Notes under the pieces: model-generated
Database searches by the model: none
Told to the model about the DNA's origin: nothing
The model's input: only the letters and a program-made list of their open reading frames with translations
Source: a virus
Reading direction: 5' to 3' (one strand)
IMG/VR virus record: IMGVR_UViG_3300037722_000409
Coordinates: 28,322-92,321 of that record
DNA length: 64,000 bases
Shown here: positions 26,802 through 50,200 of the stretch, piece by piece
Position numbering within the stretch: the stretch's first letter is position 1
Layout of the letters: each line of letters opens with the position of its first letter
Position numbers and translations under genes: made by a program

Positions 26802-29672
26802 ATGATAACGCGCCGCAAGGTCACCAACCTCATAAAGTCCTTCACCAACACCGGCGGAGGCTACGCGGAGCCCGGGAGCATCTTCGCTTCCCGGGACTCT
26901 TGCTGTCAGGAGGACTGCCACTGCACCACCAACTACGGCTGCCGGTGCGAGCATGACTGCTCGTGCCCGGACCGCTCGCTGGTAGAGGGTGAGCTCCACG
27001 AGCTGGTCCTGAGTAACGAGTTCCTCGCCAAGCTGCAGGGGTCAGCCGCCGCGGACTGGGAGCGCTACGACAGCGACACCCCACAAGCTGTAGCGGTTCC
27101 GGACAGAGAGCTATACCGCGTCGGTGAGCGCGCCGACTCACGAGACACCCTCATCGGCGACACGCCCCTCAACGATCGTGTCTATAAGGCTGATGGTCCA
27201 CCGCGCCCAGGATTGATACCACAGTCAGGTGACTGGAATAACCCAGACCGTTGGATTCGCCCTGAGGCCGAAGAAGCGGAAGAGCCTGACCTCGCTACCT
27301 GGATAAAGAACCTGCGTACCATGAGCGTCATCGACGTACGAGACACCGTCGGTGACCTCGCCAAGACCGAGGCCGAAGGTGGTAAGCCAGCGTACGTTAA
27401 GGCCATGCGGGACGTCGCGGTAAGCGAGTACCTGGTACGACGGAGTCAACAGTTTGACGAGTTGATCGCCGGCCAACCTGCCTACGAGCTAGACGAAGCT
27501 GAGCGTGTCACCAACGCGGGCATCGCCGCAGCTGAGCGTACCATTGCCAGTGCTAACACCCCCCGAGTTGTCGGTCTAGCCACACTCGACCGTATGGACG
27601 GAAAGAACCGGCTTGACGCCATCGCGGCTGTTCGTAGACGTCTAACTGCAGCAGAAGACGCGACAGTGGCCGCAGCTGTCAAAGCTCGCTTTACACCGCA
27701 GGTGTCTGACGCCCTCCGCCTTAACAAGATCTGGGAGGAGGAGCTCGGGTACTCACCGCGAGACGCTACTAGCGAGCAGCGTGGCGCGGTCAAGATGAAG
27801 CTCATAAAAGACGTCGCTGCTCGGCTTACCACGATGGCTAAGAGCAATCCCGAGTTGGCCGAGGCTCTCGCCAACCCTGCACACAACCTCATGCGTCCCT
27901 TTACTGAAGGTCAACCCACAGCGGACCGAGTGACCGACAAGCTCATCTCTGTCTGGATGGAGTCCTCTAGTGACAGCTACCCCCGCGCCATCGCCTTGCA
28001 GCTCGCGGCCCAAAAGGAGTTTTCAGAGCTCACTACGGGCTCTAGCACCGACCACTTTGAAGGTGACAAGAGCGCGTGGAGGGTGGCAGAGCGTGACCTG
28101 GCTGACAACGAGGTCTTATTCCGATCCTTTCACCGCGCACAGTACGACAACACCCAGGCGTGGCTAGGTAAGAACAACGTTAAGAGTGTCACCCTCTACA
28201 GGGGCTCTTTGCTGTCCGCGAGTAAGGTAAAGGAGATGATACCTGGAACCGCCAGCACGGCAATGGCGGACGTTCAGACTCAGCCGGTGTCAAGCTTCAG
28301 CTACGACCCTCAGGTCGCCTACGACTTCTCAACTGGCCACGTCGATGACAGCCTTGATCACACACCGACCGTGTCGGTATCGCAGGTACCCGCCAACCGC
28401 ATAATATCCACCGCGCTGACGGGGTACGGCTGTCTTACCGAGGGGGAGTTCACCGTGCTGGGAGGTGTAGACCACGGCCTCTTGGTCCAGTCAGACTCCT
28501 TTGGCACCGACGCTTTGGAGGGTCTGTTAAACACCATCGAGCAAGCTCAACACGCACAGGTTGACAAAGCTGGTCCTCCACGTCCGGGCCTCATCCCACA
28601 GAGCGGAGACTGGGAACACCCAGGACACTGGATCCGACCGCCAGAGGCAGGCGCCCCGGTAGAGCCAGAGGTGCCTGAAGAGTACGTGGGACGAGGACGC
28701 GCCGCGATCATAACCGACGCGCGCCGAGCAGGGTTTACACCTGACCCAGCGGAGGCGGTCGCCCTTGAGCGTGCCTGGCACAAGGACCTTGGCTATCGCC
28801 CGATGCACGCTAAGTGGGACGAGCAGGTGGATGTAAAGGTGTCAATAGCCGCCGCTGTATCCTCAGAGCTTAAGGCGCTCATGAGCACCGATCCAGCACT
28901 GACCTTAGCGGTTAACAACTACCACACCCCCACTGGTAAATCTTTAGATGTAGACAACACGGTGCGATACCTAGTAGGAGTCTGGGCTGACTCGTCTGGT
29001 GACCACCACGACATCGCCTTAGCGCTGCAACAGTCGGCTCTTCGAGAGTTTCCAGAACTGACCGACGGGGCAGCCACCGACCACTGGGACCTGGACCCAA
29101 CTCTAAGAGGAGTGGTGCGACGCGAGCTCGCCGAGTCTGGCGCCGTGTATCGTGCCTTTCACCGCGCTCAGTACAACAATACCCAACGGTGGTTCAAGAA
29201 GCACGGGATCACCCACGTCACGCTTTACCGTGGGATGGCCATTCCAAAGGAAACGGCAGAGACAGCCTTAAAAGGAGGCACCTCGGCCATCACTGACCTG
29301 GCCACCCAGCCGGTCTCAAGCTACTCGTACGAGCTAGAGACCGCGCTAGAGTTCGCCACCGACACGTCACGGTCCTCAGGCTTGACCCCCACGCTCAGCG
29401 TATCACGGTTCCCAGTCGAGCGCGTGCTGTCCACAGCCTTGACCGGCTTCGGGTGCTTGACAGAGGGTGAAGTCACAGTACTAGGGGGTATTGACAAGGG
29501 CCTGCTGGTGCAGACCGAAGACCCTGACAGGGGACACGGGGAGGACCCCGGCCTAGACCCTGAGCAGATCGAGAAGCTCATCACCAAGCTTGGGCCGCGT
29601 AAGTTCGAAAAGTCCGTAGCTCTTGATGGCTACCAGGTGCGTATAATACACAAGGAGAGGCGCGACCAGTGA
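26802..29672 (+). CDS. polyvalent protein: two tandem tagged modules, each ending in an R-S-E ADP-ribosyltransferase-like domain
   Basis: VTLYRG...SSFS/SSYS...GCLTEGE occurs twice. Two tags. Confidence 0.75.
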   Translation: MITRRKVTNLIKSFTNTGGGYAEPGSIFASRDSCCQEDCHCTTNYGCRCEHDCSCPDRSLVEGELHELVLSNEFLAKLQGSAAADWERYDSDTPQAVAVPDRELYRVGERADSRDTLIGDTPLNDRVYKADGPPRPGLIPQSGDWNNPDRWIRPEAEEAEEPDLATWIKNLRTMSVIDVRDTVGDLAKTEAEGGKPAYVKAMRDVAVSEYLVRRSQQFDELIAGQPAYELDEAERVTNAGIAAAERTIASANTPRVVGLATLDRMDGKNRLDAIAAVRRRLTAAEDATVAAAVKARFTPQVSDALRLNKIWEEELGYSPRDATSEQRGAVKMKLIKDVAARLTTMAKSNPELAEALANPAHNLMRPFTEGQPTADRVTDKLISVWMESSSDSYPRAIALQLAAQKEFSELTTGSSTDHFEGDKSAWRVAERDLADNEVLFRSFHRAQYDNTQAWLGKNNVKSVTLYRGSLLSASKVKEMIPGTASTAMADVQTQPVSSFSYDPQVAYDFSTGHVDDSLDHTPTVSVSQVPANRIISTALTGYGCLTEGEFTVLGGVDHGLLVQSDSFGTDALEGLLNTIEQAQHAQVDKAGPPRPGLIPQSGDWEHPGHWIRPPEAGAPVEPEVPEEYVGRGRAAIITDARRAGFTPDPAEAVALERAWHKDLGYRPMHAKWDEQVDVKVSIAAAVSSELKALMSTDPALTLAVNNYHTPTGKSLDVDNTVRYLVGVWADSSGDHHDIALALQQSALREFPELTDGAATDHWDLDPTLRGVVRRELAESGAVYRAFHRAQYNNTQRWFKKHGITHVTLYRGMAIPKETAETALKGGTSAITDLATQPVSSYSYELETALEFATDTSRSSGLTPTLSVSRFPVERVLSTALTGFGCLTEGEVTVLGGIDKGLLVQTEDPDRGHGEDPGLDPEQIEKLITKLGPRKFEKSVALDGYQVRIIHKERRDQ

Positions 29673-29857
29673 TAAACCTAGACGCAGACATCCACAACGC
29701 TGACTGGACCAAGAGGACCTGGGACCTACTGGACGTAGAGGACGAGGACGACCTCATGGAGCACCTGTCTGACACCGGCATGTCCTTGGAGCATTTCAAG
29801 ACCCTTCCGGTCTACAAGTTCAACGTCAATAAGATCCCGTGGCTTGCTGAGCTGTGA
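29669..29857 (+). CDS. small acidic protein between polyvalent genes
   Basis: GTGA overlaps at both ends suggest translational coupling. Confidence 0.65.
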   Translation: MINLDADIHNADWTKRTWDLLDVEDEDDLMEHLSDTGMSLEHFKTLPVYKFNVNKIPWLAEL

Positions 29858-32800
29858 GGATAATCCGCAAGCTCGCACCACCACGGCCTGGGCTCGTCCC
29901 TCAATCTGGGGATTGGACACACCCCGACAGGTGGGTCAGGCCAGAAGACGCCGCGCCAGCTGCTCCACCCAAGCCTGCTAAGCTTGGAGAGGTTCAGACC
30001 GGTGTGGCCTTTGTCGCGCCGGTATTTCACGGGTCGAACGCCCTGTTCACCACGCCACGCGTGGGCAGCTCTGAGACTGGCTTTGGGTTCTTCATGGTGG
30101 ATGACTGGACCGTGAGCGAGCAGTACGGGCAGCACATGTACGCGGCTGACGTGACCTTGCGCAACCCCCTGGTGATAGACGCTGAGTCCATGGCGTGGAC
30201 CGACCTCCCGATGGAGAGTATCCTTAAGGAGGCACGCGCTGACGGCCATGACGGCGTCGTGTTCAAAGACATCTCAGACCAGAAGACCAGCCATGTCGGC
30301 ACCGCCAACACGGTGGTGGCGTTTGACGCAGCAAGTGTGCGCCTGGTCTCACGCATCGATCGTGACACGCTGAAGGAGACGACTCTAAGTAAATCCGAGG
30401 TTACCGGCGACACCCTGATCCTGCCCGAGAAAGCTACACCGGACGACTCTCTCGGTCGCGGCGTGTCTACACAGCCCGAGCCACCAGAGGCTCCTCAACC
30501 CCCTCAGTCTCAAGCTCCACAGAAGCCTCAAGCCCCGCAGGCTCCTAGGGTGGTATCTAAGCTTCAACCGCCAAGGCCAGGCCTGGTCCCGCAGAGTGGA
30601 GATTGGAACGCGCCTGACCACTGGGTACGGCCAGAGGACGCAGCCAAGCCTGGTGTTAGCGTCCATGAGAGTATAACCACTCTTACGGCTACGCAGTCTA
30701 CCGTGACGCTAGCAGACGGCGCCACCTTTACGTTGCCTAATACTAACATCAAGGACGCGTTGGAAGCGCGAGAGTTTTACCAAAACCTCAAGCCAGGTGA
30801 TAAGGTTACCTACGACGGTGAGGCACGCGTCATATCAGCCGTTAAAGAGCTCCCGTACGGCGCGGCCGCAAAGTGGTATCAAGGACCTTCGTTCGAGTTT
30901 ACCGACGGCGACGACGTGTCTGGGCTTCACCTGCACGGTGACAATAAAGCACGTCGAGAGGCCATGGCCATAAGCTACACGTTGTCGAACGCGGCTAAGC
31001 TGTCCCGTCGCAACCTGGGTAAGGTAGCACCTTTACCCACACTTGCCACGTACGCTGAGAGCATCGGAATAGCAGCCGCCCAAGAGTGGGCCATGACCAA
31101 CGTCATAACCTCCGGGTACCTGTCAGGACAAGGGGTGTGGCGTGGGTATCACCAGTTCCTGGGGCATGACGAGAAGACCATCGACACCTTGGCGCAACTT
31201 CTAGACGATCATGGTCAAGGTGGGGCCACTCAGGACCGCGCGGACGCGACGATCCACCAACAGTATCAAGCCGACACCATGGTGGGCCAGGCGCTTCGTG
31301 ATCAAGCTGACCTCGACACTCACCTGTTGGAGATGTGGTCAGCCGCCGCCCCGATGCGGGCCAAAGCGTTTGCAGACCGTGTCAAAGTGGCCCCTGGCGA
31401 CAGTGACTACGCTAAGGTACGGGACCTGCTTGACCCTCAACTTTACCGTGCTGGTAAGGTCGAGAAGCCAGTAGAGTCGTGGACCACCCACGCGGAGGGC
31501 GCCTCTCCCACCGCGGTAACCGACCCCAGCAATCGTTGGGCTCCAGACAAGAGCATGCCTATGACATCTATACGTGCTCAAGGCTTCAAGGCGTTGGCGG
31601 GTGTAACTCACCTTACCGGGGCGCCTGGAGAGGGTGAGGTCCTGCTCATACGAGAGTCCGGATATAAAGGCCTAGACAAGGCCAACCCGCCCCGTCCTGG
31701 ACTTGTTCCTCAGTCCGGAGACTGGGAGCACCCAGTACGATGGATACGTCCTGGGCCGCTAGAGGGCGCCTCAGAAAAGATTACGCCAGCCGCAGTGCGC
31801 TCAGACCCTAAAGAGATGAGTATACGCTCGTATCATGGTACTAGCAGTGCTGCAATAGCCTCAATCAAGAAGCATGGTCTGATAGTAGGGCAGGAGGGCG
31901 GCGGAGATGAATGGATACGGAGTAATCCTGAGGAGTTTGAAGAGGATATTGACCGGCCAAAGTCAGTTTACACAGCTTACAGCGTTCAAGACGCCGTGCA
32001 ATATTCTAAATACGCGGCAAAAGTGTCTGGGGGCACACCGGTAGTACTGCGAATAGAGATTCCCCTTTCCGTGTTTAACAAGTACGCCATAGATGATGAG
32101 ACCGCCGCAGGCGCGGTGAGATTTGAGCGCACCATTCCCCCAGAATGGATAACCATATTAGATGATAAAATTAAAAAAGAACAAGTAGACACCAAGGTCG
32201 TATACGCAGTTGTGATGGCTGACAATAACCTACGCAAGTCTAGCGGTCAACCTCCTCGACCAGGGTTGATCCCGCAGTCGGGTGACTGGGAGAACCCAGA
32301 CCGTTGGATCCGACCAGAGGAGGTCACGACGCCAGAGGCGCCCAAGACGCCGACTCTAGCTGGCCGTGAGTACATCAAGGTGTCCGGCAGTTACACCTGG
32401 GACCAACCATCGGCTGAAAAGGACCTGAAGGAGGCTGGGTACGTTCACGCGGGCAGCACGTTCACCGACGCTGACCCTCCTGGGTACCCCAGCATCCAGA
32501 TATACATGCACCCTCAGCTGGGGCGCCTAGAGGTGCACAGGGATAAGGAGGTCAAGAACCCAGAGGGTAAGGGCTGGAGTCAGCGCTTCTACATCGTGAA
32601 CCCCGCGCCAGACTACACGCCAGACACCCGGGACCCGCTGACGCTCACCTCTAGGGAGCGGCTGTCAATCCGTCAAAAGTTCAATCAGTACTTCGGGTCG
32701 TACGACTCCAAGGAGCGGTGGGAGAAGGCGGCTGACACCTTGGGCGTCTCGATCGACGAGGTCAAGGCCGAGGCGGTGGCCTACATGAAGCCCCTCATCG

Positions 32801-33453
32801 ACAAGGCTGACGTGTGGATGCGCATGCCACCTTCACGCCTAGCCAGCGTATTGAAGGACGGCCGGTTCAAGCCTCTAGCGGAGAGCGGACGCATGGGTCC
32901 CAAGAAGGGCATCACCATGAAGCCCTACATGGAAGCCAGGGACCAGATGGAGGAGCAGATCTTCGGCATCCCGCAGGGTAAGGCTCACCCTGAGCGCCCG
33001 ATATACGGCTACCTGAGCGACAGTGCGGACGGGCACGGCTCGGCCTTTGAGTCGGACGGAGTGCAAGCCCTAGACGTCTACGGAACCGCGGCCGTGAAGT
33101 TCAAGCCAAGCGTGAGGGAGCGGACCTCTTTCACGGTCGGAGACTCTCTGGACATGAACATGAACGCCATAGGTGGCCGGCTCATCCCCTCCATGCTCGA
33201 CGACGTGAAGGCCGAGTCGACAATGGGTGACTCGTTTGCGCGGGAGAGTAAGGACCCGTCGGTAATGTCAATACAGGCGCTAGCACGCTACAAGTACACC
33301 GAGGCTCAGGTGCACGGTGGCGCGAACGTCAACGAGATAGACGAGGTCGTGTTCCACAAGGACGAGCCCAGCGCCGCCCTAGCCAACGCTTTGCGTAAGG
33401 CAGGCATACGGTATAGAATAATAGCACGGGACAAGATAGGAAAAGGGGATTAA
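29854..33453 (+). CDS. polyvalent protein: four tagged ART-like domains (ART-PolyVal-like, R-S-E, Tpt1/KptA-like, DUF3626-like)
   Basis: VFHGS..GFGFF..NPLVID..GHDGVVF..VAFD; LYRAG..ESWT..EGE; YHGTS...SIKKHGL..IPPEWI; RPIYGYL..YG..FTVGDSL..YTEAQVHGG. Confidence 0.75.
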   Translation: MRIIRKLAPPRPGLVPQSGDWTHPDRWVRPEDAAPAAPPKPAKLGEVQTGVAFVAPVFHGSNALFTTPRVGSSETGFGFFMVDDWTVSEQYGQHMYAADVTLRNPLVIDAESMAWTDLPMESILKEARADGHDGVVFKDISDQKTSHVGTANTVVAFDAASVRLVSRIDRDTLKETTLSKSEVTGDTLILPEKATPDDSLGRGVSTQPEPPEAPQPPQSQAPQKPQAPQAPRVVSKLQPPRPGLVPQSGDWNAPDHWVRPEDAAKPGVSVHESITTLTATQSTVTLADGATFTLPNTNIKDALEAREFYQNLKPGDKVTYDGEARVISAVKELPYGAAAKWYQGPSFEFTDGDDVSGLHLHGDNKARREAMAISYTLSNAAKLSRRNLGKVAPLPTLATYAESIGIAAAQEWAMTNVITSGYLSGQGVWRGYHQFLGHDEKTIDTLAQLLDDHGQGGATQDRADATIHQQYQADTMVGQALRDQADLDTHLLEMWSAAAPMRAKAFADRVKVAPGDSDYAKVRDLLDPQLYRAGKVEKPVESWTTHAEGASPTAVTDPSNRWAPDKSMPMTSIRAQGFKALAGVTHLTGAPGEGEVLLIRESGYKGLDKANPPRPGLVPQSGDWEHPVRWIRPGPLEGASEKITPAAVRSDPKEMSIRSYHGTSSAAIASIKKHGLIVGQEGGGDEWIRSNPEEFEEDIDRPKSVYTAYSVQDAVQYSKYAAKVSGGTPVVLRIEIPLSVFNKYAIDDETAAGAVRFERTIPPEWITILDDKIKKEQVDTKVVYAVVMADNNLRKSSGQPPRPGLIPQSGDWENPDRWIRPEEVTTPEAPKTPTLAGREYIKVSGSYTWDQPSAEKDLKEAGYVHAGSTFTDADPPGYPSIQIYMHPQLGRLEVHRDKEVKNPEGKGWSQRFYIVNPAPDYTPDTRDPLTLTSRERLSIRQKFNQYFGSYDSKERWEKAADTLGVSIDEVKAEAVAYMKPLIDKADVWMRMPPSRLASVLKDGRFKPLAESGRMGPKKGITMKPYMEARDQMEEQIFGIPQGKAHPERPIYGYLSDSADGHGSAFESDGVQALDVYGTAAVKFKPSVRERTSFTVGDSLDMNMNAIGGRLIPSMLDDVKAESTMGDSFARESKDPSVMSIQALARYKYTEAQVHGGANVNEIDEVVFHKDEPSAALANALRKAGIRYRIIARDKIGKGD

Positions 33454-33459
33454 ACAACA

Positions 33460-36400
33460 ATGACCACTCTACTGGCCACGTCGACAGACGGGCTCCACAG
33501 GCTCATCGAGACCGAGGACGGACTAGGCTACATCGAGGACACCCAGTCTGGAGCTCGAACCGAGGAGAAGTCGGTGGTGTCGCTCTTGTCTGCCGCCATA
33601 GACTGGAGTGACGATGACGGCGACGTCGATAAGGCGGCTGTCAGTCCTGACTGGCACGCCATGCAGGAGACTGGTGTGTCGCAGACACCTATCGAGAAGG
33701 CTGGTCCTCCTCGCCCAGGCCTTGTACCTCAAAGCGGAGATCCTGAGCACCCGGTACGGTGGGTCAGACCAGAAGAGTACGACGATGAGCCTGAGGAAGA
33801 GCGACCTAAACCTAGAGCCCCGTACGCTGAAGCCGTCGTGATGTTTCACGGGACCACCACCGCCGCTGTAGCCTCTATTAAAGAAAAGGGTCTTGTTCCA
33901 GCAGGAGGCGCTGGCGCGGACGCGTGGGCCCATAAAGAGGGTATGGCACAGTGGCTTGGTATAACCACCACAAAACGCCCGCAGTCTTCCTTTGTCTCTG
34001 AGCGCGCGGAAGACGCCCTCACGTACGCGAGGTACGCCACCGAGGTAAGCGGGGGGCAAGCCATCCTCTTACAGATTGATATACCTGCCCAGCACTTTGA
34101 CACTCACGCTAAAGCCGACGAGCTAGCACGGGGTCGCGGTGCGTATAGGTTCGAAAAGGGCATTCCCCCTGAGTGGATAACCGTGTTGCCCACTGACTAC
34201 CTCACCAAGGCCGACGACAGCACGCGTCGTCTTTACGCTGTCGTGATGGCTAACAACAACACTATAGAGAAGGCCGCCCCACCACGTCCTGGCCTGGTTC
34301 CACAGTCAGGTGACTGGGAACACCCTGATCGTTGGGTGCGGCCCGAGGACGCGGCGCCTGGTGATGACATTGATAACCCAGAGACGTGGGAGCCGTACCA
34401 GCCGACAGCTAGAGTAACCGACCTATACCATGTTACCGCGGCGGATAACCTGGCCAGCATCAAGCAGCACGGGCTTATCTCAGCTGCTGACCCGTCTGGG
34501 ATAGCGACGTCGACCTTGTCAGAGCCGGTGCCCACTCAACGGGTGTTCTTCACCACCAGCCTCGAGCAGGCCAAGGTTCTGTTTGACCAGGGTCAAGAGC
34601 ACGGCGACATGGCTATAGTGCACCTGCAGTTGAACCAAAAAGAACTGGCCGCCACTGACCCACGAGTCGACCCTGGCGTCGAAGAAGCTGTAGCGGTTAA
34701 CCCTAACAAGAAGCTCGTGGCCAACGGCTTGATGCGTGTGTACGCCTCAAATCCAAAGAAGGTACCACGCGCGTGGCAGGAACGATTAGTTCTTACAAAA
34801 GCTGTGGTCACTACCCCCATGGGCAAGGACGGGGTCGAGTACGACAAGGTAAAGACCGGTGACAGCATCTGGATCACCATCACCAATCCCGAGTCTCCGC
34901 TGCACGGCCGGCACATCCTCATCACCAAGCGTCCAGACGGGCTCTTCGCCATTACCGGCGGCATGGGCGGTGACACCGAGGCACGCCGGCACATGGTGAT
35001 AGGTGGGACGCCTAAGCGCTCAAAGCGTGACGAGGCGCTAGAGGAGGAGATCGAGAACGTAAAGGAGTACAACGAGCCGCTTGAGGCGGCTGCTAGACAG
35101 CTTCGTCAAGAGTCAAAGAAGGAGCTGACCGAGGCCAGTGACCAGATGCTGGAGGCCTTGGGCCTTGACCGGGTCGACAAAGATGAGATGCTCAAGCGTA
35201 AGGACGACGTTCAGAACTACGTGGCTGACCAGCTTGGTGAGGAGGCAAGCAGCGATGAAGCTAAGAGAATCACTGACACGATTATGCGCTCCGTTGCGTC
35301 ATCTGAGCGCAAGGTTAGAGAGCGAGTCCAACGAGAGCGACAAGTCGCGGTCCTCAAGGTTGGCAAGCGCCTCGCCGCGCTTCGTGAGTCCGGAGCGGGT
35401 GACAGCGAGGTCGCGGCTGTCGCGGGTGATGGCCTTGAATCGCTTATACCCGATCGCGACCCCTTTAGCGTGTCACTGCCGCCAGTCGACGCACTCAAAG
35501 ACCTGTCAAAGGAAGAGCTTGCTTCTGCCGTCGCGAATCATTTTGACGCAGCAGCAAATCAATATTTTGAGGCTGAACGGGCTGAGCATCCAGACCAAGG
35601 CGATACCCCCACTTTCGACCTTGGAGCGTCTGTCAAGCCCCTAGAGCTAAAGGACCACGCTCAGCTTACCGAGGCGATCGACAGCGTGCGTGGCTACTGG
35701 CAGAAGCGTGCTGAGGCGGAAGAGACCAGCAAGGCGCTCAAGAAAGTTCCTCTAGCGGCTGCTGTTCCCAGCACCCTGGCCAGCATCAGGGACCTCGCGG
35801 CACAGTCGGTCGGGACCATGTCTGACGCTGAGGTAGAACAGAGGGCCACCGCCAACTATGAGGGCTGGCTGCGCACCAACACCGCCTTGGCGTTCTACGA
35901 CGCTGTGGGAGAGTACTGGAACGACGACCGCTCCTTGAGCGACCGCCTGCACGATAAGGATAGAGCAGACACCGTGATGCAGTACCACGTCAACTCTGGT
36001 GCGGCCACAGCGCTGGCGGCTTTGTCACAGAAGTACGCGGGAAGTAAGCTTGACACCCTGCGCTTGATCGAGTCTGGAAACGTAGAGCTTGCCGCCTCCA
36101 TGGCTGCCCTCGAGGCTCGGCAGTCTGCCGGCTCACCCGAGGCGTTCAACACCATCATCCAGCAGGTGAAGGACTTCAACGCTACCAATCAGGCACAGAC
36201 CGAGAAGGTAGCTCTCGACCGTCACGCCACCCTAGACAAGCAGCTCCAGGAGATCAAGCGTCAGCAGCAGTCAGGTGAGCTCTTAGACAGGATACGCGGC
36301 TCAGCCTTGGAGCTCTCCAACCTGGTGGAGCAGCGCAAGAACCTGGGGACCGCCCTCGGCAGCTTGCAGGCCAGCGCCACGTTCTTCGACCGACTTGAGC

Positions 36401-38208
36401 ACTTCGGTAAGGCCAAGGACGACGTGGTGGACATCAATGTGGGTGCAAACCTACAGGATGCCGAGGCCATGATCAACCGTCTCGGGTTGACCAAGAACTA
36501 CGTGGTGGACACCAGCGACCCGGACAACCTGCGCGTGCGTGTAGGCCTGAGCGGCCTAGGACGACACGTGAGCCGAGAGAAGGACGCGGCCGCCAAGAAC
36601 GACCGCTTCAACGCCATCAAGACCAACATGGAGGGCGTAGGTGAGGACGAGCAGGGCAACATGGTGGTGGACAATTACGACGTACCAGGGTGGAACCGCA
36701 CCTTTACCGACGCTGAGGGAACCGAGCGCGAGTACAAGTGGAGGGTGGAGCAGCGCAACGACATCGAGTGGCTACGAGCCGCCACCGAGAAGACCGAGGA
36801 CAACCCCACCGGAAAAGGCGGGGGTCTTATAACGCGGGTGGTTGGCGCAGGCAAGACCAACACCACGCTTGGGTTCTACGCACACCAGCTGGCGGCTAAC
36901 CCAGACTACAAGGGGATCGTCGCCGTGCCTAAGGGACGCGCTGAGCAGTGGGTCGACGAGGCCAAGAAGTTCAGTGGTCTAAACGTGCAGCTTATCCCAG
37001 AGGGAGCTAGCAAGGCAGACGTCGACGAGGCGCTCATGTCAGCCAAGCCTGGGACCATCGTGGTCACCGGTCACCGTGAGGCGGCCCGCGCTCACGACAC
37101 CATAAACGCCCTGCAGACCAACGAGGACCAGTCCTTGCGCTACCACGGCCTCACCATCGACGAGCCGCAAGAGCTGCAGTCACGGGGCCAGAGTGGAAAC
37201 GTGGGGGCCCTGGGACGACGCCTGATGAAGATCGACTTTGACCACCGCCTCGGGCTGACCGCCACCCCAGCTCGAAAGCTGCCCACCGAGGCCTACGACC
37301 TGATCAAGTGGTCAAGCGGAGCAAAGGACCTCGGAAGCAAGGCGAGCTTTAAGCGTTCTTTCGGGGGCTTTGGCAGCGGGACCAACGCCCAGGATGCCGC
37401 TGTAGCCGAGGCCTACTTTAAGACCATCTCTCCCTACATCAGCGGAGACCGCATGACCGACCCCACCTTTAAGACCTCTCACGAGATGGTTGACGTTAAG
37501 CGCTCACCGTCTCAGGTGGCTGAGCAGAAGCGCATCGAGGCTCAGTCGGTCAGCTACGTAGACCAACGCCGGTCAGCACTGCTGAGCGAGGCGGCGCAGA
37601 ACCCGAACCACGCCCTCAACCGTGGCCCTGAGGCGACACGCGCCAGGCGTGCCAAAGACCAAGCCCGCAAGGAGGTCGCCGCCATGCACGAGTCAAACTT
37701 AGCTGGTGGGGACTGGCGCAACAACTCCAAGCTAGCCGCGGCCAGCCAGCGGATACGACCTGGTGACGACAAGAAGCACGTGGTCTACATCGACAGCAAG
37801 AGCCAGCGGCAAGCCGTGATGAGCATGCTGGTAGACAGCGGCTATCCTGCCGCCGAGGTCAAGAACATCGCGGCCACCACGACCAGCATGACAGGGCGTG
37901 AGATGGCAGCTAGGGTAAGAGCTTTCCGCGAGAACCCGAAGGTGAACGTGATCATGATCGACCGGACGTCCGCGAGTGGTTACAACCTTCAGAGCGGAGA
38001 CGACCTGCACGTACTAGGGACCCCGGTCGACGCTGCCAACTACCTACAGGCGCAAGGACGCATCGCGCGCATGCCACGGACTGGTGACGTCAACATCCGC
38101 ACCTACCGCTACGACGACGCTCCTGAGGAAGCTGCGGCATGGAACGATCTCGATAGCCAGCTAAAGGTGCTACGTGCGTCTAGCCCAGGCCTATTTAGTA
38201 ACCTATAG
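33460..38208 (+). CDS. polyvalent protein: two tagged Tpt1/KptA-like ART domains plus C-terminal SF2 (SNF2-like) helicase
   Basis: FHGTT..SIKEKGL..IPPEWI; YHVT..SIKQHGL..VFFT; helicase motifs GAGKT, DEPQ, TATP, GYNLQ, QAQGRIAR. Confidence 0.8.
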   Translation: MTTLLATSTDGLHRLIETEDGLGYIEDTQSGARTEEKSVVSLLSAAIDWSDDDGDVDKAAVSPDWHAMQETGVSQTPIEKAGPPRPGLVPQSGDPEHPVRWVRPEEYDDEPEEERPKPRAPYAEAVVMFHGTTTAAVASIKEKGLVPAGGAGADAWAHKEGMAQWLGITTTKRPQSSFVSERAEDALTYARYATEVSGGQAILLQIDIPAQHFDTHAKADELARGRGAYRFEKGIPPEWITVLPTDYLTKADDSTRRLYAVVMANNNTIEKAAPPRPGLVPQSGDWEHPDRWVRPEDAAPGDDIDNPETWEPYQPTARVTDLYHVTAADNLASIKQHGLISAADPSGIATSTLSEPVPTQRVFFTTSLEQAKVLFDQGQEHGDMAIVHLQLNQKELAATDPRVDPGVEEAVAVNPNKKLVANGLMRVYASNPKKVPRAWQERLVLTKAVVTTPMGKDGVEYDKVKTGDSIWITITNPESPLHGRHILITKRPDGLFAITGGMGGDTEARRHMVIGGTPKRSKRDEALEEEIENVKEYNEPLEAAARQLRQESKKELTEASDQMLEALGLDRVDKDEMLKRKDDVQNYVADQLGEEASSDEAKRITDTIMRSVASSERKVRERVQRERQVAVLKVGKRLAALRESGAGDSEVAAVAGDGLESLIPDRDPFSVSLPPVDALKDLSKEELASAVANHFDAAANQYFEAERAEHPDQGDTPTFDLGASVKPLELKDHAQLTEAIDSVRGYWQKRAEAEETSKALKKVPLAAAVPSTLASIRDLAAQSVGTMSDAEVEQRATANYEGWLRTNTALAFYDAVGEYWNDDRSLSDRLHDKDRADTVMQYHVNSGAATALAALSQKYAGSKLDTLRLIESGNVELAASMAALEARQSAGSPEAFNTIIQQVKDFNATNQAQTEKVALDRHATLDKQLQEIKRQQQSGELLDRIRGSALELSNLVEQRKNLGTALGSLQASATFFDRLEHFGKAKDDVVDINVGANLQDAEAMINRLGLTKNYVVDTSDPDNLRVRVGLSGLGRHVSREKDAAAKNDRFNAIKTNMEGVGEDEQGNMVVDNYDVPGWNRTFTDAEGTEREYKWRVEQRNDIEWLRAATEKTEDNPTGKGGGLITRVVGAGKTNTTLGFYAHQLAANPDYKGIVAVPKGRAEQWVDEAKKFSGLNVQLIPEGASKADVDEALMSAKPGTIVVTGHREAARAHDTINALQTNEDQSLRYHGLTIDEPQELQSRGQSGNVGALGRRLMKIDFDHRLGLTATPARKLPTEAYDLIKWSSGAKDLGSKASFKRSFGGFGSGTNAQDAAVAEAYFKTISPYISGDRMTDPTFKTSHEMVDVKRSPSQVAEQKRIEAQSVSYVDQRRSALLSEAAQNPNHALNRGPEATRARRAKDQARKEVAAMHESNLAGGDWRNNSKLAAASQRIRPGDDKKHVVYIDSKSQRQAVMSMLVDSGYPAAEVKNIAATTTSMTGREMAARVRAFRENPKVNVIMIDRTSASGYNLQSGDDLHVLGTPVDAANYLQAQGRIARMPRTGDVNIRTYRYDDAPEEAAAWNDLDSQLKVLRASSPGLFSNL

Positions 38209-38718: not shown

Positions 38719-38724
38719 TAATAT

Positions 38725-39943: not shown

Positions 39944-39988
39944 TGTTACCTTCCTGTTATATACGTTAGCACGCTCAGGGTATATGAT
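39944..39988 (+). promoter_or_regulatory. promoter with TGTTAC-N5-TGTTAT direct repeat (copy 3)
   Basis: TATACG-17-TATGAT. Confidence 0.7.
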
Positions 39989-42231: not shown

Positions 42232-42260
42232 TTTACCCGACCAGTTAACTCGAGTATAAT
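42232..42260 (+). promoter_or_regulatory. sigma70-type promoter
   Basis: TTTACC-17-TATAAT. Confidence 0.7.
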
Positions 42261-42711: not shown

Positions 42712-42742
42712 AATCCGGCGGGGTGGTAGCCGCCGGATTTTT
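42712..42742 (+). terminator. intrinsic terminator-like hairpin
   Basis: AATCCGGCGG/CCGCCGGATT followed by TTT. Confidence 0.6.
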
Positions 42743-42743
42743 A

Positions 42744-42819
42744 GCCCGCGTAGCTCAGCTAGCAGAGCACCTCACTTGTAATGAGGATGTCCGGGGTGCA
42801 ACTCCTCGCGCGGGCTCCA
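42744..42819 (+). tRNA. tRNA-Thr(TGT)
   Basis: Cloverleaf: acceptor GCCCGCG/CGCGGGC, anticodon arm CCTCA-CTTGTAA-TGAGG, encoded CCA. The T loop is the variant TGCAACT. Confidence 0.9.
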
Positions 42820-43415: not shown

Positions 43416-43502
43416 GCCGGGGTGGCTGGAATGGTAGACGCGGCGGCCTTAAAACCCGCTCACCGAAAGGTGGTGGGGGTTCGAGTCCCTCCCTCGGCAC
43501 CA
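43416..43502 (+). tRNA. tRNA-Leu(TAA)
   Basis: Acceptor GCCGGGG/CCTCGGC, loop CTTAAAA, long variable arm CACC-GAAA-GGTG, GGTTCGAGTCC, CCA. Confidence 0.92.
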
Positions 43503-44069: not shown

Positions 44070-44098
44070 TTTACCTCACCTGCTCTACCGGGTATAAT
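44070..44098 (+). promoter_or_regulatory. sigma70-type promoter upstream of the second cargo/protease cluster
   Basis: TTTACC-17-TATAAT. Confidence 0.7.
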
Positions 44099-44331
44099 AG
44101 TATCATAGCTATACCGGAGGAGTTGATGCCACTCAGCGAGCTCGAGGCCCACGCGTACAAGACCGACCTGCAGGTACGAGAGGTACTGCTACGGATGCTC
44201 AAGCACAAGGCTGAGGTTCAACAGGCCCTCCAAGAGGAGGACATCTCCGTCCTAAAGGAAGAGCAACTCAAGTCCGCACTCGCGGAGATCACGAGCCAGG
44301 TAGACCAATATAAATTTAGTGGCTCCTTTTA

Positions 44332-46773
44332 ATGCGCGTTATCCACCGCGCTAATCCTCCACGCCCAGGCCTCGTTCCCCAGTCAGGCGACTGGGATAGA
44401 CCAGTACGATGGGTACGACCATCCGAGCAAGCGGTGTCGTCCACAACTGCCACTGACCTACACGTGACCGTTCAGCAGATACTTACACAGTATAAACCTG
44501 GTGACGTTTTGAGTCCCGAGGACGTAGAGCGTGCTCTCAAGTACTTCGTGCCAAATGAAAGCGGGCGCCTGTTTCACGTCGAAATGGCGCTGTTTCGAGA
44601 AGCCCTAGGGACAGTCCCAGCGGTTCAGCTACAAGGCCTTGGTCCCTTCGAAGTGGTTGATAAGATACCACCTAAATTTCCAAAAGACTGGGTGGCAGCG
44701 TACTCGTATTCACCAGACAACTCCGAGCGCCCCAACATCATGGCGCTGCGTGACCGTAAACTGACGGTCCACGCGGTGGTGCACGAGATAGGTCACCACG
44801 TTGAGCACTCCTATCTCAACGGAGCCGTTCGGCAAGGCCTTAAGAAGGCATTTCGTGAAGCAAAACGGTCCCGCACTGGTTTTCCGTCCGAGTACTCTAA
44901 GACCTCAGCAAGTGAGTTTTTCGCTGAGTGCTACGCGTGGAGCTTGCTAGATCCCGTGGAGTTGAACACGCGTAACCGTATGATGTTTCACATCTGCAAC
45001 TCCGTAAACGAAGGTGACCGTCGACTGATAAACAACTCGCTGGAAACGGAGGGGCGTGTGCTTATTCACGAAACTGAGGGTCTACTAGACGGCTTTGACC
45101 CTACGCTCCCTGACGCTGGTTCTGACACGCTCAATAAGGCGCAGCCCCCACGCCCCGGCCTGATGCCTCAATCTGGTGATTGGGATAAGCCGGTGAGATG
45201 GGTGCGACCTGAAGAAGCTGCTCCGTCTGCAAACTGGGTTAAAGACAACGCCGAACTGTTAGACCATGCAGACCGTGAGCTACCTGTCGAAGCCTACCAC
45301 GCGATATTAGCTTTTGTCGGCCACGAACCTGGCGCGCTCTCTACCCATGGGCCTGGAACAATTGGCATAATGGATGCTGTCGCCTTAGAGGAGGCGTACA
45401 CGGAGCCTCTGAGCTCGCCTCACGCGCGTGAGATACGGCGTGGCCTCGAGTCAGCTATGGCCCCAATTCGTGAGAAACTACGAGCGGAAGTCGGTGACTC
45501 AATAACACTTTACCGGCACCAGAGTCCACGCACAGAGAACGCTAAAGACCGCACGGTGTTGTCGTGGACCAGTGACAGAGAGTTCGCGGAGTACTTACAC
45601 GGTCCTGGCGAGCGTGACGTCTACTACCTGCAGAGCCGTGGGCCGTACAGTCAAGTCATCGAGACTGACCCAGCCTACGGGTCGGTTCCGTTTTCCAGCC
45701 AAGAGTCCGCGCAAGCGTGGGCTGACGCACACCCTGGTGTAGACATACACGGTGACTCGGTCGGCTCCGTGGACGTGGTGTCAGAAAAGCGAGGTGAAAA
45801 ACAGAAGGGCGTGGTGGTAACCGCTGATGTTCCTCTTGACGACATTGTGTGGATCACTGACCGTGCTGGCCAGTCAGAGTTCATAGTTCGGAACACTGGT
45901 GCTCACCGCATAGAAAAGGCCCAGCCTCCACGCCCAGGCTTAGTACCCCAGAGCGGCGACTGGGATCACCCGCGTCGGTGGATACGACCAGAGCAACTCA
46001 CTCACCCGCAGATACCTGAGCAGCCCGCGTACCGCAAGGCTAACCTCTCTTTAGTGGTGCCCTCTGAAGCCGCTAAGATAGACCGTGAGTTTCACAATAA
46101 AAACTGGCGGGCGCTCATCTCTGAGGCATTTGGCGTAGGAGTGCCGGGGTATGAGGTACACGTCTCTAGCGCATACGTCTCTAGTAAATACGGCAAGCGT
46201 GGTGCCGCCTTAGTTGTAAAGATGCGGGTGTTTTACGAGGGGGGAGAAGATGATATAGGGTCAATCCACCGCGTCATCTTCCCGGACCAAGTGTACCATG
46301 ACAGCTTCTTCCTAGACTCGAAGCACCAAAACAAGGGATTGGCGGCGGACATGCTTGAGCGCATGGAGGACACCTACATCAAGCACGGAATCAAGTTCAT
46401 CACGTTGATGGCCAACGACTCGGTCGGCGGATACGCTTGGGCTCGGCAAGGTTTTGACTTTCAAGACAGCCAAGACCGGGCGGGCGTGGACCGAGAGGCG
46501 GAAGAGTCTATCGTAAACTATGTGGCCAACAATAACCTAAGCTCTGCCCAAAAGGAGAGATTGCTAGACCAGTATCACAGCTTGGAGCACGCCTGGGACA
46601 TCGCCGCGTGGAATCCGACAAACGCACCAGCTGGCGAGCACCTTGGAAAGAGCATCCTCCTCGGCGCCACATACCACGCCAGCAAGGACCTTGACCCTGA
46701 CAGCGCAGGCTACAAGATCGGAAAGAGGTACCGCGCGGCTCGAAAAGCCCTACAAGGAGCTAATGAACAGTAA
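44332..46773 (+). CDS. polyvalent protein: tagged zincin peptidase, R-S-E ART-like domain and GNAT acetyltransferase
   Basis: HEIGH..SEYS..SEFFAE; ITLYRH..LSWT..QSE; LDSKHQNKGLA...VGGYAWARQGF. Confidence 0.8.
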   Translation: MRVIHRANPPRPGLVPQSGDWDRPVRWVRPSEQAVSSTTATDLHVTVQQILTQYKPGDVLSPEDVERALKYFVPNESGRLFHVEMALFREALGTVPAVQLQGLGPFEVVDKIPPKFPKDWVAAYSYSPDNSERPNIMALRDRKLTVHAVVHEIGHHVEHSYLNGAVRQGLKKAFREAKRSRTGFPSEYSKTSASEFFAECYAWSLLDPVELNTRNRMMFHICNSVNEGDRRLINNSLETEGRVLIHETEGLLDGFDPTLPDAGSDTLNKAQPPRPGLMPQSGDWDKPVRWVRPEEAAPSANWVKDNAELLDHADRELPVEAYHAILAFVGHEPGALSTHGPGTIGIMDAVALEEAYTEPLSSPHAREIRRGLESAMAPIREKLRAEVGDSITLYRHQSPRTENAKDRTVLSWTSDREFAEYLHGPGERDVYYLQSRGPYSQVIETDPAYGSVPFSSQESAQAWADAHPGVDIHGDSVGSVDVVSEKRGEKQKGVVVTADVPLDDIVWITDRAGQSEFIVRNTGAHRIEKAQPPRPGLVPQSGDWDHPRRWIRPEQLTHPQIPEQPAYRKANLSLVVPSEAAKIDREFHNKNWRALISEAFGVGVPGYEVHVSSAYVSSKYGKRGAALVVKMRVFYEGGEDDIGSIHRVIFPDQVYHDSFFLDSKHQNKGLAADMLERMEDTYIKHGIKFITLMANDSVGGYAWARQGFDFQDSQDRAGVDREAEESIVNYVANNNLSSAQKERLLDQYHSLEHAWDIAAWNPTNAPAGEHLGKSILLGATYHASKDLDPDSAGYKIGKRYRAARKALQGANEQ

Positions 46774-47275
46774 AGGTGAGAATGGTGCGTTTCTTTTCGC
46801 TGAGCTCTGGGAGCCAGGCTTTGAGAAGACGCTGCAGGGTGACTTTGAGCTCAACAAGGCTGGTGGATTGGTGCCTTACCGCGTGCGCGTGTATCCAAAG
46901 ACCGGTGGCGCGCCGTACATGACCACCCGGTGGCGCAAGCCTGGCGCCTTGTCGGCTGAGTCCCCGATCCACGTGGTCCCCGCGGCCGCCTACCAGGGCA
47001 GCCTCATAGACGTCTACCACGCGTGGCAGGGATTCCTCGGGACACAGGAGAAGCTCACCGACGCCCTCATGCAGCCGCTGGTCGCCATGCAGGAGATCCT
47101 GTTCAAGGGACGCCTAGGACTACTCGCTATCCAAGACAACCGAGTGCTCGGCGTGGCGGTTATCCAGCAGGGAAGCAACCTCTTGACCGCGAGCCCTATA
47201 GACCAGCTGCGCGGCAACACCAACGCCGTGATAGACACCCTCACTCAGGGCTTGAACGCCTACGAGGTTCAATAG
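46763..47275 (+). CDS. hypothetical protein with a divergent tag-like motif
   Basis: LNKAGGLVPYRVRVYPKTGGAPYMTTRWRKP. Confidence 0.6.
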   Translation: MNSKGENGAFLFAELWEPGFEKTLQGDFELNKAGGLVPYRVRVYPKTGGAPYMTTRWRKPGALSAESPIHVVPAAAYQGSLIDVYHAWQGFLGTQEKLTDALMQPLVAMQEILFKGRLGLLAIQDNRVLGVAVIQQGSNLLTASPIDQLRGNTNAVIDTLTQGLNAYEVQ

Positions 47276-47278
47276 GTC

Positions 47279-50200
47279 ATGCGCATCGTTCACAAAGCTG
47301 GTCCTCCAGGACCGCCTCCTCGGCCCGGCCTCGTATGGAAGCCGTCCACTCACAGGTGGATACGGCCAGACCATAACGACGAGATAGTAGACCCGTGGCA
47401 CTCAGACGTGCGAAATGAGCTGTCTGGAATGACCAATGATCAAATTGATAGTATACTTTCAGATCTTTCACAGTGGTACAAAGATAACAACATTTCTCCT
47501 GGTAAAGGATACGCCCTAGCAGAGGCTCCTCCAGGATGGAGCGATATAGTAGACCTCACTCATGTGACTCGGTCAGAAGCAAGCTACCGCGATCAGCTTG
47601 ACGTCTATAGAGCTGGTAACTTTAACTTAGACGCGTCGACCGAGTCTCTTCAAGATGACAAACGCCGTATTAAAGAATACTTATCCGACAGAGGGTTAGC
47701 TCAGTTTCACGGCCCATCTGACGTAGCGGTGTTAAAAACCGCAAATAAGGCTATTAACGAAGAGCTAAAATCTCGTAAACTTCCTACTGGCGCGGTGATC
47801 TCCGCCCACTACGCGGCTTTCTACGAGGACGAGGAGCTAGCTCCAATAGATCCTGCCGAGATGACCCGGGTGCTAGACAACATTGCTAAGACAGGGTTAA
47901 TACCACGCGCGAGTGACAATGAGACAACTCAAGTATATGATAAGGTTTTTAACCGCCCGCCCGCCGTGTATAGCGTTCCGCTAGGAGATTGGAAAGAAGC
48001 TTTTCTTTTTCCTCCGGAGAACCCTGTCTCTGAGGAGATTAGCAAGACGGTATTTATACTTCACGGCGTTGAAACACTAAGCAAGAGCCGTGTTGACGAC
48101 ATGGAGCAAGTTACCACCATCGGCGACCAGCTAGCTGAAAGAGGCGAGGTGGCTAAACTGTCAGACCATGTCTCCTCGTGGGGCCTTAAGACGTACACCA
48201 CTAAGGCCGCCGCAAATCCAGAGGCCTTTGGGTTAACCGCGCCTGAGGTCATGACAACGGCACCAATTCCGCCCAGTAACCTCGTACTGGGCCGGGACCT
48301 CGTAGCTCAAAGACCTGGCATAACCAACGGTGAACTTACGGAACTACTATTTAAGATAGCCAAAGAGCGTAGCGTCACAAATATACTAAAAGACAGTGCT
48401 GTCCCGGAGGTTTCGGTATACACCCCGGGATGGACCGCGCGTGCGTACGCCCGACTCAGAGAGGAGCGTGAGGACTCTGCTGTGCCCACTGCTATAAAGA
48501 AGGCCCAGCCCCCTCGCCCAGGGCTCGTCCCTCAGTCAGGGGACTGGGACAACCCGGGACGGTGGATACGTAAACCCGAGATGCAGCAAGGTGAAGCTCC
48601 GCAACCTGGGGCTCCTAAAGACGAGCCGCCCCCGGTAAATCTGTCACCTGGGGCTCAGGCGGTTGTCGACAAGTTCGGGACTCACGCGGACCTCACCTCC
48701 TCGCTGAAGGACCTAGAGGCCGTGCAGCAGAAGCTCGAGGCCTTAAATCAGCAGAAGGTGCCTGCGCCGGTCAAAGGTGGAATCAAGGAGCTGCTGGGTC
48801 ACGTGGAGCGCCTCAAGACCCAGATAGCTGAAGGAAAAGGCAAGGGTGACAACCAGCCACCTGGTGAGCCGCCTAAGCCAGGCCTAGAGTGGGACGCTAA
48901 GAGCTACAGGTGGACGCGCCCAGAGACTGGCAGGGAGTGGACCGCCAGCGGGGTGCCGATCCCGCCGAGCTGGACCAAGGTCAAGACCTACCGAAGCCCG
49001 CGCAGCCATATAATAGCCTCGGGTACCGATCAGCACGGCAAGGGTAAGTACCTGTACAGCTCCGACTTCCAAGAGGGTCAGAAGGCCAAGAAGTTTGACA
49101 GACTCAAGAAGATAGACAAGGTGATGCCGCGCATCCAGCGTGCCGCCGCCACCAAGGGACAGTCGGACGACTCCGCTGCAGCCTTGTACCTCATATCCAA
49201 GACTGGCTTCAGGGTCGGCGGCGAGGGTGGCATGACGGCCGGCAAACCCACCTATGGGGCGTCCACCCTACGCGCGGGACACGTCAAGATAAAGGGTGAC
49301 ACCGTGTCGTTTGACTTCGTAGGCAAGAAGGGTGTCAATGTCAAGCAAGTGGTGAAGGACCCCACTCTGGTCCGGCTACTCGCGCCGCGGCTAACTGGAA
49401 AGGCCAAGGACCAACCGATATTTGCCACCAACGAGAAGCAAGTACTGGGAACTCTACGTGACATGGGGAGTAAAAACTTCAAGGTTCACGACCTGAGGAC
49501 GTGGAACGGCACCAAGCTGGCCCAGAACTTGGTGAACGAGATGCCCGCCCCGACCACTCCAGCTGAGGACAAACGAGCGCGGTTAACGGTGGCGGCCAAG
49601 GTAGCGGAGTTCCTGGGGAACACGCCAAAAGTAAGTCTAGACAGCTACATAGCCCCAGAGGTATTCGCCCCATGGGACGCTGTAACAGCGGAGCAAGGTA
49701 TGACTAATAAAGCCAAGCAGGCATTCGACGTTCTGAAGGACGTCTACTACTCCCATGAGATTACCAACAAGAGCGCGTTCGAGCCAGAAGACTCTCCAAT
49801 CTCCAAGGCAGTCACCTTGGCCAACGCCGGGTTGGAGCTTTGGGGGACGCTGATCTTGAAGGCTGAGATAGACGCGGAAGCAGGCACGGCTGACGGACAG
49901 ATAGACATGACGGACCTGCCAGGCGTTCCACCGCAAAAGCTAGACGTCGGGGACAAGAAAGCGCACGACATGCTGAGCCAGGTGAATAGCATCCTGCAGA
50001 ACATCGTGAACGATCCGGCGACCGCTAGACAGTTGGACCCTGAGGAGCGGGCGCGAGTCACCGCGGTTGGAAACTGGCTGACCCAGACCCCTCAGCGGCC
50101 TGAGCGACCGCAAGCCTCGCTGCCTCGGCGTGACGGCTTTGAGCAGCAGGTCAAGATGCTGGCTAAGGCAATGGACACCAACATCTCCGTGAAGGCGGTC

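Follow-up and report, generated by a model that had tools for sequence, protein, structure and literature searches.

Nine ADP-ribosyltransferase-superfamily modules of at least four families in five polyvalent proteins of a 92-kb viral genome

Bacteriophage T4 encodes three single-domain ADP-ribosyltransferases (ARTs), Alt, ModA, and ModB, of which Alt is an ART of the R-S-E type that is packaged in the head and enters the host cell by injection. Phages are believed to commonly use head-packaged ARTs as an opening move against their hosts, and T4 Alt is, to our knowledge, the only one that has been studied in depth. ARTs are also the commonest modifying domains of polyvalent proteins, with 12 ART copies found in one prophage protein, and the survey that reported this found no R-S-E domains in genuine polyvalent proteins (Iyer 2017, PMC5512222). 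At least 10 ARTs have been described in Bacillus phage G and 12 in Bodo saltans virus (Iyer 2022, PMC9503650). Here, we examine a 64-kb stretch of DNA (the window), which forms the 3′ part of a 92,321-bp IMG/VR virus record (IMGVR_UViG_3300037722_000409; CheckV rating, complete). Five very large polyvalent proteins encoded there carry nine well-supported modules of the ART superfamily, drawn from at least four families, and a doubtful tenth one.

The five proteins are encoded by large open reading frames (ORFs) that are all located on the + strand and are uninterrupted by stops; the modules and tags described below share that strand. Protein 1 (26802-29672; 956 amino acids, aa) consists of a Cys-rich N-terminal module followed by two paralogous ART modules of the R-S-ExE type, and protein 2 (29854-33453; 1199 aa) contains four ART modules. 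Protein 3 (33460-38208; 1582 aa) combines two ART modules of a His type with a coiled coil and a SNF2 helicase (about 36751-38073), while protein 4 (44332-46773; 813 aa) joins a zincin HExxH peptidase, an ART, and a GNAT domain. Protein 5 (47279-52852; 1857 aa) starts with an orphan module, continues with a topoisomerase IB, a Nudix domain, and a segment that resembles DNA methylases, and ends in an S78 prohead protease (about 52211-52477). The non-ART domains of proteins 3 (SNF2), 4, and 5 were assigned by Pfam. Polyvalent proteins are recognized by a combination of at least two unrelated effector domains in a polypeptide that is encoded among late or virion genes; with ART, zincin, GNAT, SNF2, topoisomerase IB, Nudix, methylase, and S78 protease domains in the five ORFs, and with terminase, portal, and major head genes on the same strand, we assign the five proteins to this class.

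The nine ART-superfamily modules comprise two DraT-like R-S-ExE modules, one related R-S-QxE module, one minimal R-S-ExE module, one ART-PolyVal module, two His-type modules plus a divergent one, and one DUF3626/SopF module; the number of families is at least four and arguably six. We consider it probable that the products of these five ORFs are polyvalent virion proteins of a tailed phage, that nine of their roughly 18 tag-delimited modules have the ART fold, and that these would be packaged, ejected, and dependent on nicotinamide adenine dinucleotide (NAD+). Like the polyvalent proteins described previously, these are giant proteins of a late/structural gene block that mix ART, zincin, GNAT, SNF2, and methylase domains, include a C-terminal capsid-type protease, and place a GNAT next to an ART (PMC5512222). 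They differ from them in combining several ART clades, including R-S-E and SopF-type domains, rather than repeats of H-Y-D ART-PolyVal, and in having modules bounded by a repeated 24-aa tag that is unmentioned in that paper.

Membership in the R-S-E clade was judged by an Arg on strand 1, a Ser-x-Ser/Thr motif on strand 2, and an (E/Q)-x-E motif at the start of strand 5. All four candidate modules of the window keep these catalytic-type residues, which are invariant or nearly so in the alignments of the three families to which the modules belong (A3, A2, and A5). The first family includes M1b (27645-28499; LYR at 28194, R at 28200, SS at 28287, ExE at 28440) and its paralogue M1c (28794-29525; LYR at 29223, R at 29229, SS at 29313, ExE at 29463), which are 41% identical. 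A protein search yielded 15 homologues, and the resulting alignment of 17 sequences (A3) shows no variation at the Arg, the Ser, or either Glu of E-x-E; the profile of this alignment finds M1b at E 2e-67, by construction. Three of the homologues exceed the gathering cut-off of the Pfam family DRAT (PF07357; 25 bits) over the catalytic C-terminal half of that model (P0162, 40.7 bits; P0170, 32.7 bits; P0161, 25.4 bits), and three more score below it. Because the window copies themselves give no direct match to DRAT or ADPrib_exo_Tox, the link of M1b and M1c to DraT is a transitive one. With the same arrangement of R, S, and ExE as in DraT, and with homologues that pass the DRAT cut-off, each of the two modules is predicted with high confidence to be a DraT-like R-S-E ART, although in a viral effector context instead of nitrogenase regulation. 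The Pfam model PF03496 (ADPrib_exo_Tox), which we take to cover the Alt/VIP2-type exoenzyme ARTs, finds nothing in the 92-kb genome at E ≤ 10. T4 Alt, which enters the cell along with the phage DNA and modifies proteins of the host, provides a functional model for the R-S-E modules, the delivery of which we infer; unlike the three single-domain ARTs of T4, the nine ARTs considered here reside inside polyproteins.

The remaining two R-S-E modules have no Pfam model. M4b (45223-45924; LYR at 45508, YR at 45511, SW at 45562, QxE at 45871) has one protein homologue and relatives in five IMG/VR loci, and the alignment of this family (A5) shows invariant Y-R, S-W-T-S-D, and G-Q-S-E-F motifs next to a variable insert of about 90 aa. 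In a profile comparison, its trimmed core matches the core of the M1 family (80.7% probability, E 1.3e-5). M2b (31120-31668; LYR at 31441, YR at 31444, SW at 31477, ExE at 31630) has many relatives in an exhaustive HMMER search. Thirteen short ones (A2) share Y-R, G, W, and G-A-x-G-E-x-E without exception, and conservation is at least 90% for the Ser and the Pro inside these motifs; the family is recognized neither by Pfam nor by PDB sequence profiles. None of the M2b, M1, and M4b families found an informative match in PDB sequence-profile searches, and neither did M4b or the DUF3626-type module, M2d, as single sequences.

Structural models point in the same direction. The AlphaFold model of M2b (predicted local distance difference test, pLDDT, 79.4; predicted template modelling score, pTM, 0.76) has a helical N-terminal part followed by five strands, the first of which carries R and the second S-W, while ExE leads into the last. 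When this model was used in a fold search, R-S-E ARTs took ranks 1 to 8 (Z at most 4.0), and nearly all of the best structural matches of the M4b model were ARTs (Z at most 5.8). ExE or QxE lies at a loop-to-strand junction in both models, and the structure comparisons recover the split β-sheet NAD-binding core that is characteristic of the ART superfamily. We regard M2b as probably a stripped-down R-S-E ART. A close relationship between M2b and the M1 family was considered and rejected: whole alignments matched only through the Gly-rich tag of the homologues, and once the cores had been trimmed the match was confined to a short segment around the Ser motif, with a probability of about 10%.

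Module M2a (30019-30330; FHG at 30025, AFD at 30319) is of the ART-PolyVal type. It matches the Pfam model PF18760 over positions 8 to 71 of 140 (E 5e-6, 27.7 bits, under the cut-off of 31.2 bits; E 8e-7 in a search of the own genome). Homologues in P0061 (55% identical) and in a large phage contig, L002 (42% identical), keep F-H-G-S and the A-F-D/N strand. The published signature of ART-PolyVal is H-Y-D (strand-1 His, strand-2 Tyr, and strand-5 Asp; PMC5512222). M2a has the His (in FHG) and the Asp (in AFD), and its presumed strand-2 aromatic residue is Phe, as it is in both close homologues. On these motifs and matches, we predict with good confidence that M2a is an ART-PolyVal domain.

The fourth ART module of protein 2, M2d (32713-33420; IYGY at 33001, conserved Glu at 33301, E-A-Q-x-H at 33304), scores below the cut-off of 27 bits of the Pfam family DUF3626 (PF12294; E 3e-4, 20.4 bits) and matches phrog_8314 (E 7e-14). 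Its tblastn matches include gp9 of mycobacteriophage Tierra (E 1e-11, 34% identical), a Nodularia phage "DUF3626 domain-containing protein," and gp2 of phage D29. These three proteins and a fourth homologue, P0055, pass the DUF3626 cut-off with 32 to 37 bits. A profile of four sequences (A6) matches PDB entries 7dn8 and 7dn9 across the conserved Tyr and Glu motifs (E 3.5e-6); the entries are named only "Putative cytoplasmic protein," and we presume that they are SopF. DUF3626 is part of SopF (PMC6682159), an enzyme that ADP-ribosylates the c subunit of the V-ATPase (PMC7716379, citing Xu et al. 2019). Through this transitive evidence, M2d is very likely a member of the DUF3626/SopF family, whose conserved Tyr and Glu motifs it keeps. 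Unlike SopF, M2d is the cargo module of a phage and not a type III effector of animal cells, and its target therefore necessarily differs from that of SopF.

The His-type modules form a family of small domains without a Pfam model. M2c (31810-32238; YHG at 31831, IPP at 32134) and its paralogue M3b (33826-34263; FHG at 33844, IPP at 34162; Phe in place of the strand-2 Tyr) are 39% identical. Most of the 317 matches of a HMMER search (E ≤ 0.001) are of the His type and occur either as stand-alone proteins of 110 to 160 aa or inside giant proteins; the domain, of about 115 aa, occurs for the most part in proteins of viruses and has been seen in hundreds of viral protein clusters. An alignment of 39 sequences (A1) shows a His, a Gly, a Thr, and, later, a Val and an Asp that are at least 90% conserved, with Tyr or Phe after the Val; both His and Asp are kept in M2c and M3b. 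The A1 profile finds M3b at E 2e-45, by construction, M3b being one of its rows. The Pfam PARP model, run on the own genome, gives E 0.019 at 33766-33897, in the M3b region. Against PDB, the best match of the A1 profile is the NAD lobe of Tpt1 (E 8.5e-5), with DarT, PARP3, and PARP10 weaker, and the Pfam matches among the 39 members are to Tpt1 (13/39) and PARP (11/39), with unrelated families matched by one member each. M2c and M3b are each very probably ART folds, as far as can be predicted from sequence.

The initial annotation had called these modules Tpt1/KptA-like. They are His-type modules that resemble the NAD lobe of Tpt1, sharing with it Y-H-G-T, a helix ending in G-L-x-P, and a C-terminal I/V-P-P strand in the same order. 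However, the alignment with Tpt1 is limited to its chain residues ~91-180, with the A1 profile matching no more than about the first 28 residues of the NAD lobe, the domain of about 115 aa has no counterpart of the N-terminal, RNA-binding lobe of Tpt1, and the Tpt1 model (PF01885) finds nothing in the 92-kb genome. Because both the model match and the lobe are missing, M2c and M3b resemble the NAD-binding unit of Tpt1, PARP, and DarT and not KptA; we rejected membership among the Tpt1/KptA enzymes and retained the resemblance to the NAD lobe.

The second His-type module of protein 3, M3c (34414-34800, with an approximate 3′ limit; YHV at 34426), is divergent. It aligns with A1 over 62 columns, from the His strand through the Tyr/Phe strand (hhalign, 92.7%, E 4e-7), and the A1 profile finds it in its own genome (E 2.3e-4). 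Matches to DUF7002 (PF22531; E 6e-5 in hmmscan, E 1.4e-5 in the own-genome search) and DarT (PF14487; E 0.02) are confined to its first ~22 aa, which correspond in both cases to model positions 1 to 24; M3c thus does not show the match over the model length that membership in DarT or DUF7002 would entail. Its neighbors in the ESM Atlas, which provide a lead only, are PARP, Tox-ART-HYD1, and Arr. It is likely, though less so than for M2c and M3b, that M3c is a domain of the ART superfamily.

The affinities of the His-type modules raise an alternative, which partly overlaps with the interpretation given above: instead of modifying host proteins, M2c, M3b, M3c, and perhaps others may act on nucleic acids (on DNA as DarT does, or on RNA/DNA phosphate ends as Tpt1 does) or may hydrolyze NAD+ or NAD-derived defense signals. 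Both of the best sequence matches, Tpt1 and DarT, act on nucleic acids, the set of polyproteins also contains topoisomerase IB, SNF2, methylase, and Nudix modules, and the ESM Atlas neighbors of M3c include Arr, an ART that acts on small molecules. On the other hand, the domains have no counterpart of the N-terminal part of Tpt1, the Pfam model of Tpt1 finds nothing in the genome, PARP-type matches are about as frequent as Tpt1 ones, and the published analysis places the ARTs of polyvalent proteins with protein-modifying clades (PMC5512222). We consider this alternative somewhat unlikely but worth keeping in view.

A tenth candidate, M5a (47790-48300), lies in the N-terminal part of protein 5. 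Its single homologue is a module of P0061 (BLASTP, E 5e-8), with which it shares, in order, a His, a helix ending in G-L, R-x-x-A-V-Y-S, a strand, and I-P-P-S-N-L. Compared with A1 in hhalign, M5a reaches 21.8% alone and 61.9% when the P0061 module is added. Searches for near-length proteins and scans of IMG/VR yielded no homologues of M5a, the ESM Atlas gave no usable match, and a metagenome scan with its C-terminal motif returned one marginal match at a contig edge. We regard M5a as a tentative ART whose status is somewhat doubtful.

The initial annotation had predicted about ten ART-like domains of at least four classes. Nine of these are supported by profile, Pfam, or fold links, and M5a, as just described, stays tentative; no further ART copies were found elsewhere in the genome with the A1, A2, and A3 profiles. 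The catalytic-type motifs fall within the ranges that had been proposed and are invariant or nearly so in each family alignment. In particular, R, S, and ExE or QxE are in place in the R-S-E domains proposed at ~28190-28465, ~29217-29490, ~31440-31645, and ~45500-45885, so that all four copies keep the full triad that was to be checked. The ART-PolyVal-like domain at ~30020-30350 has a sub-threshold match to PF18760, and the DUF3626-like domain at ~32800-33420 is supported by homologues that pass the Pfam cut-off and by the A6 match to 7dn8 and 7dn9. A possible union of ART-PolyVal and the His-type mini-ARTs in one family was rejected (hhalign, 1.9%). Because these two groups show no profile similarity to each other and the R-S-E and DUF3626 groups are separate again, the modules represent at least four classes.

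The modules are delimited by a tag of ~24 aa that begins with P-P-R-P-G-L and ends with R-W-x-R-P. On the protein level, 14 copies are distributed over the five proteins, with starts at 27198, 28575, 29878, 30568, 31687, 32251, 33706, 34279, 44356, 45145, 45925, 47315, 48509, and 48869 (span, 27198-48940). A DNA pattern for the first six codons of the tag has 13 matches versus 0.08 expected, and all of them are inside the five ORFs. The tag starts or separates nearly every module, is present in all five proteins, including the protease-fused protein 5, and splits them into about 18 modules. Among 165 collected homologues, 18 carry this tag, 24 carry a Gly-rich tag (G-S-G-x-x-G-H-x-G-x-P-G-x-x-G-G-S), and none carries both. 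Given that homologous ART modules are found on lineage-specific tags, the tag fits a packaging or processing address and not a part of the catalytic unit. L002, a 190-kb low-GC IMG/VR phage contig, encodes a 1337-aa polyvalent protein (L002:2633-6646, − strand) with an ART-PolyVal domain, two zincin peptidases, and a GNAT. A single exact tag copy precedes the GNAT, and the remaining borders between modules are marked by another repeated motif that is rich in His.

The genes of the five proteins are flanked on the same strand by terminase, portal, and head genes. Upstream are the terminase large subunit (354-1871) and the portal (2828-4537); downstream are the major head protein (53827-55260) and more virion proteins. 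The S78 protease end of protein 5 is directly upstream of an unannotated ORF (52999-53784), which is a putative scaffold gene, and of the gene for the major head protein. A precedent from a cultured phage is Tierra gp9 (L011:1541-3724), which is annotated as "capsid maturation protease and ADP-ribosyltransferase" and combines a VG15 domain with DUF3626: there, a SopF-type ART is fused to a head protease and encoded between the portal and the scaffold/major capsid genes. Unlike Tierra gp9, which has a single ART, the window has nine, with the protease and the DUF3626 module on different polyproteins. Because of the late-gene position, the S78 fusion, the Tierra precedent, and the published model (PMC5512222, PMC9503650), we suggest that the proteins enter the procapsid, may be processed at the tags, and exit with the DNA.

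From the domain identities, the conserved motifs, and the gene context, we infer packaging, cleavage, ejection, NAD+ use, and targets as follows. The proteins would be made late and carried into the procapsid, protein 5 by means of its fused prohead protease and the other proteins probably by means of the repeated tag. They may then be cut at the tags and ejected together with the DNA. Once in the host cell, the ART modules would consume NAD+ while ADP-ribosylating a number of different targets simultaneously. If solved relatives are a guide, these targets would be proteins for the R-S-E types and proteins or nucleic acid ends for the His-type modules, and the purpose might be host takeover or the disarming of defenses, as for T4 Alt. 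The Nudix module, if co-packaged, could act on ADP-ribose-containing molecules (PMC9503650). In a more far-reaching version, the fused prohead protease would cut out all nine ARTs, and their joint ejection would amount to an NAD-dependent first strike against multiple targets, with the M2b, M4b, and His-type families representing undescribed clades whose substrates, for example defense proteins or nucleic acids, are new for phage ARTs; we offer it as a conjecture that, in this full form, is rather unlikely to hold.

Several observations weigh against nine packaged and active ARTs. None of the ART modules of the window reaches a Pfam gathering score on its own, and the DRAT, ADPrib_exo_Tox, and Tpt1 models give no match when run directly on the genome. 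AlphaFold models cover only M2b and M4b; the M4b model, although reasonable in its core strands, is poor overall (pLDDT 56.4), and the Z scores of both fold searches are low. The initial annotation had proposed structure prediction followed by Foldseek as a check; for M2b, Foldseek returned nothing from PDB and BFVD at E ≤ 0.001, whereas it was the other fold search that ranked R-S-E ARTs first. The links of the His-type family rest mainly on a strand-helix motif of ~28 residues, Phe occupies the position of the expected strand-2 Tyr in M3b, M3c, and M2a, and proteins 1 to 3 are about 15 kb away from the head genes.

The Phe substitutions and the lack of a module above a Pfam cut-off could mean that the folds are ART-like but that most copies are catalytically dead and, in place of an enzymatic role, provide binding modules or bulk protein for the head interior or for ejection, all the more so as paralogous duplication, seen here in M1b/M1c and M2c/M3b, often precedes loss of activity. 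Yet R, S, and ExE or QxE are kept in every R-S-E copy and invariant across distant homologues, and within the His-type family the conservation of the His and the Asp is at least 90%. Such conservation is unexpected for dead domains, and we consider widespread inactivity quite improbable. A further reading is that the motif sets arose by chance in rapidly evolving proteins rich in linkers and that most modules are not ART folds. This is very improbable and already largely refuted for the nine modules by the invariance of motifs in families that were collected without reference to ARTs, by the DRAT and DUF3626 Pfam matches of homologues, by the PDB profile matches, and by the dominance of ARTs in two fold-search lists.

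The distance from the head genes bears on ejection. Between proteins 1 to 3 (26.8-38.2 kb) and the head genes are about 15 kb of small ORFs and two tRNA genes, which would be compatible with proteins that are not ejected and act late in the cell or within the capsid (for example, on phage proteins or DNA), or with the packaging of protein 5 alone via its protease. Against this, each of the five proteins, protein 5 with its fused protease included, has modules headed by the same tag, all five genes share a strand and lie between those of the portal and the major head protein, and injection has precedents in T4 Alt and in the published model of polyvalent proteins (PMC5512222). We judge retention of the proteins to be unlikely and continue to favor their ejection with the DNA.

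The initial annotation had compared the locus with T4 only and had called the arsenal unusually large. Phage G has a genome of roughly 0.5 Mb, and that of Bodo saltans virus is larger still; compared with these two viruses, the number of ARTs is similar here, with about nine in 92 kb and within five adjacent polyproteins. Because a protein with 12 ART copies (PMC5512222) and the at least 10 ARTs of phage G (PMC9503650) have already been published, this phage is at the top of the known range and stands out only by its genome size of 92 kb and by the clades that it mixes. The strategy is a known one, and what is unusual is the density of ARTs, the mix of clades, and the presence of three families without a Pfam model (M2b, M4b, and the His type). 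Nine tag-marked ARTs from four to six families offer compact and separable candidates for the discovery of new bacterial ADP-ribosylation targets, and the locus extends the cargo of polyvalent proteins to R-S-E and SopF-type ARTs. The three families are widespread viral ARTs that are missed by current domain libraries, and the shared tag together with the protease fusion makes the packaging and processing hypothesis directly testable.

At the DNA level, no close relative was found among GenBank phages: a megablast search with the 20-kb region matched only a tRNA gene. That gene, tRNA-Thr(TGT) (42744-42819), is the sole stretch with DNA similarity to a GenBank phage (T6); together with tRNA-Leu(TAA) (43416-43502), it is located between the two blocks of polyprotein genes. 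A related-locus search in IMG/VR found no relatives of protein 2, M3c, or M5a, and a PHROGs scan matched only two families, both of unknown function.

The N-terminal module of protein 1 has no Pfam match and contains a dense Cys/His cluster at 26895-26975 (about 10 Cys in 25 residues) that may bind metal. Proteins 2 and 3 are in one reading frame and are separated at 33451-33462 by a TAA stop and two codons, followed by ATG; this junction may represent a former single ORF or a read-through site. Proteins 2, 4, and 5 start with a similar heptapeptide (M/V-R-I/V-I/V-H/R-K/R) right before the tag (29854-29880, 44332-44358, and 47279-47300), and the same heptapeptide closes protein 1 (29620-29672), just ahead of a double stop (TGA TAA). 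Its position at protein starts and at one protein end looks like a recombination seam or an ancestral fusion point.

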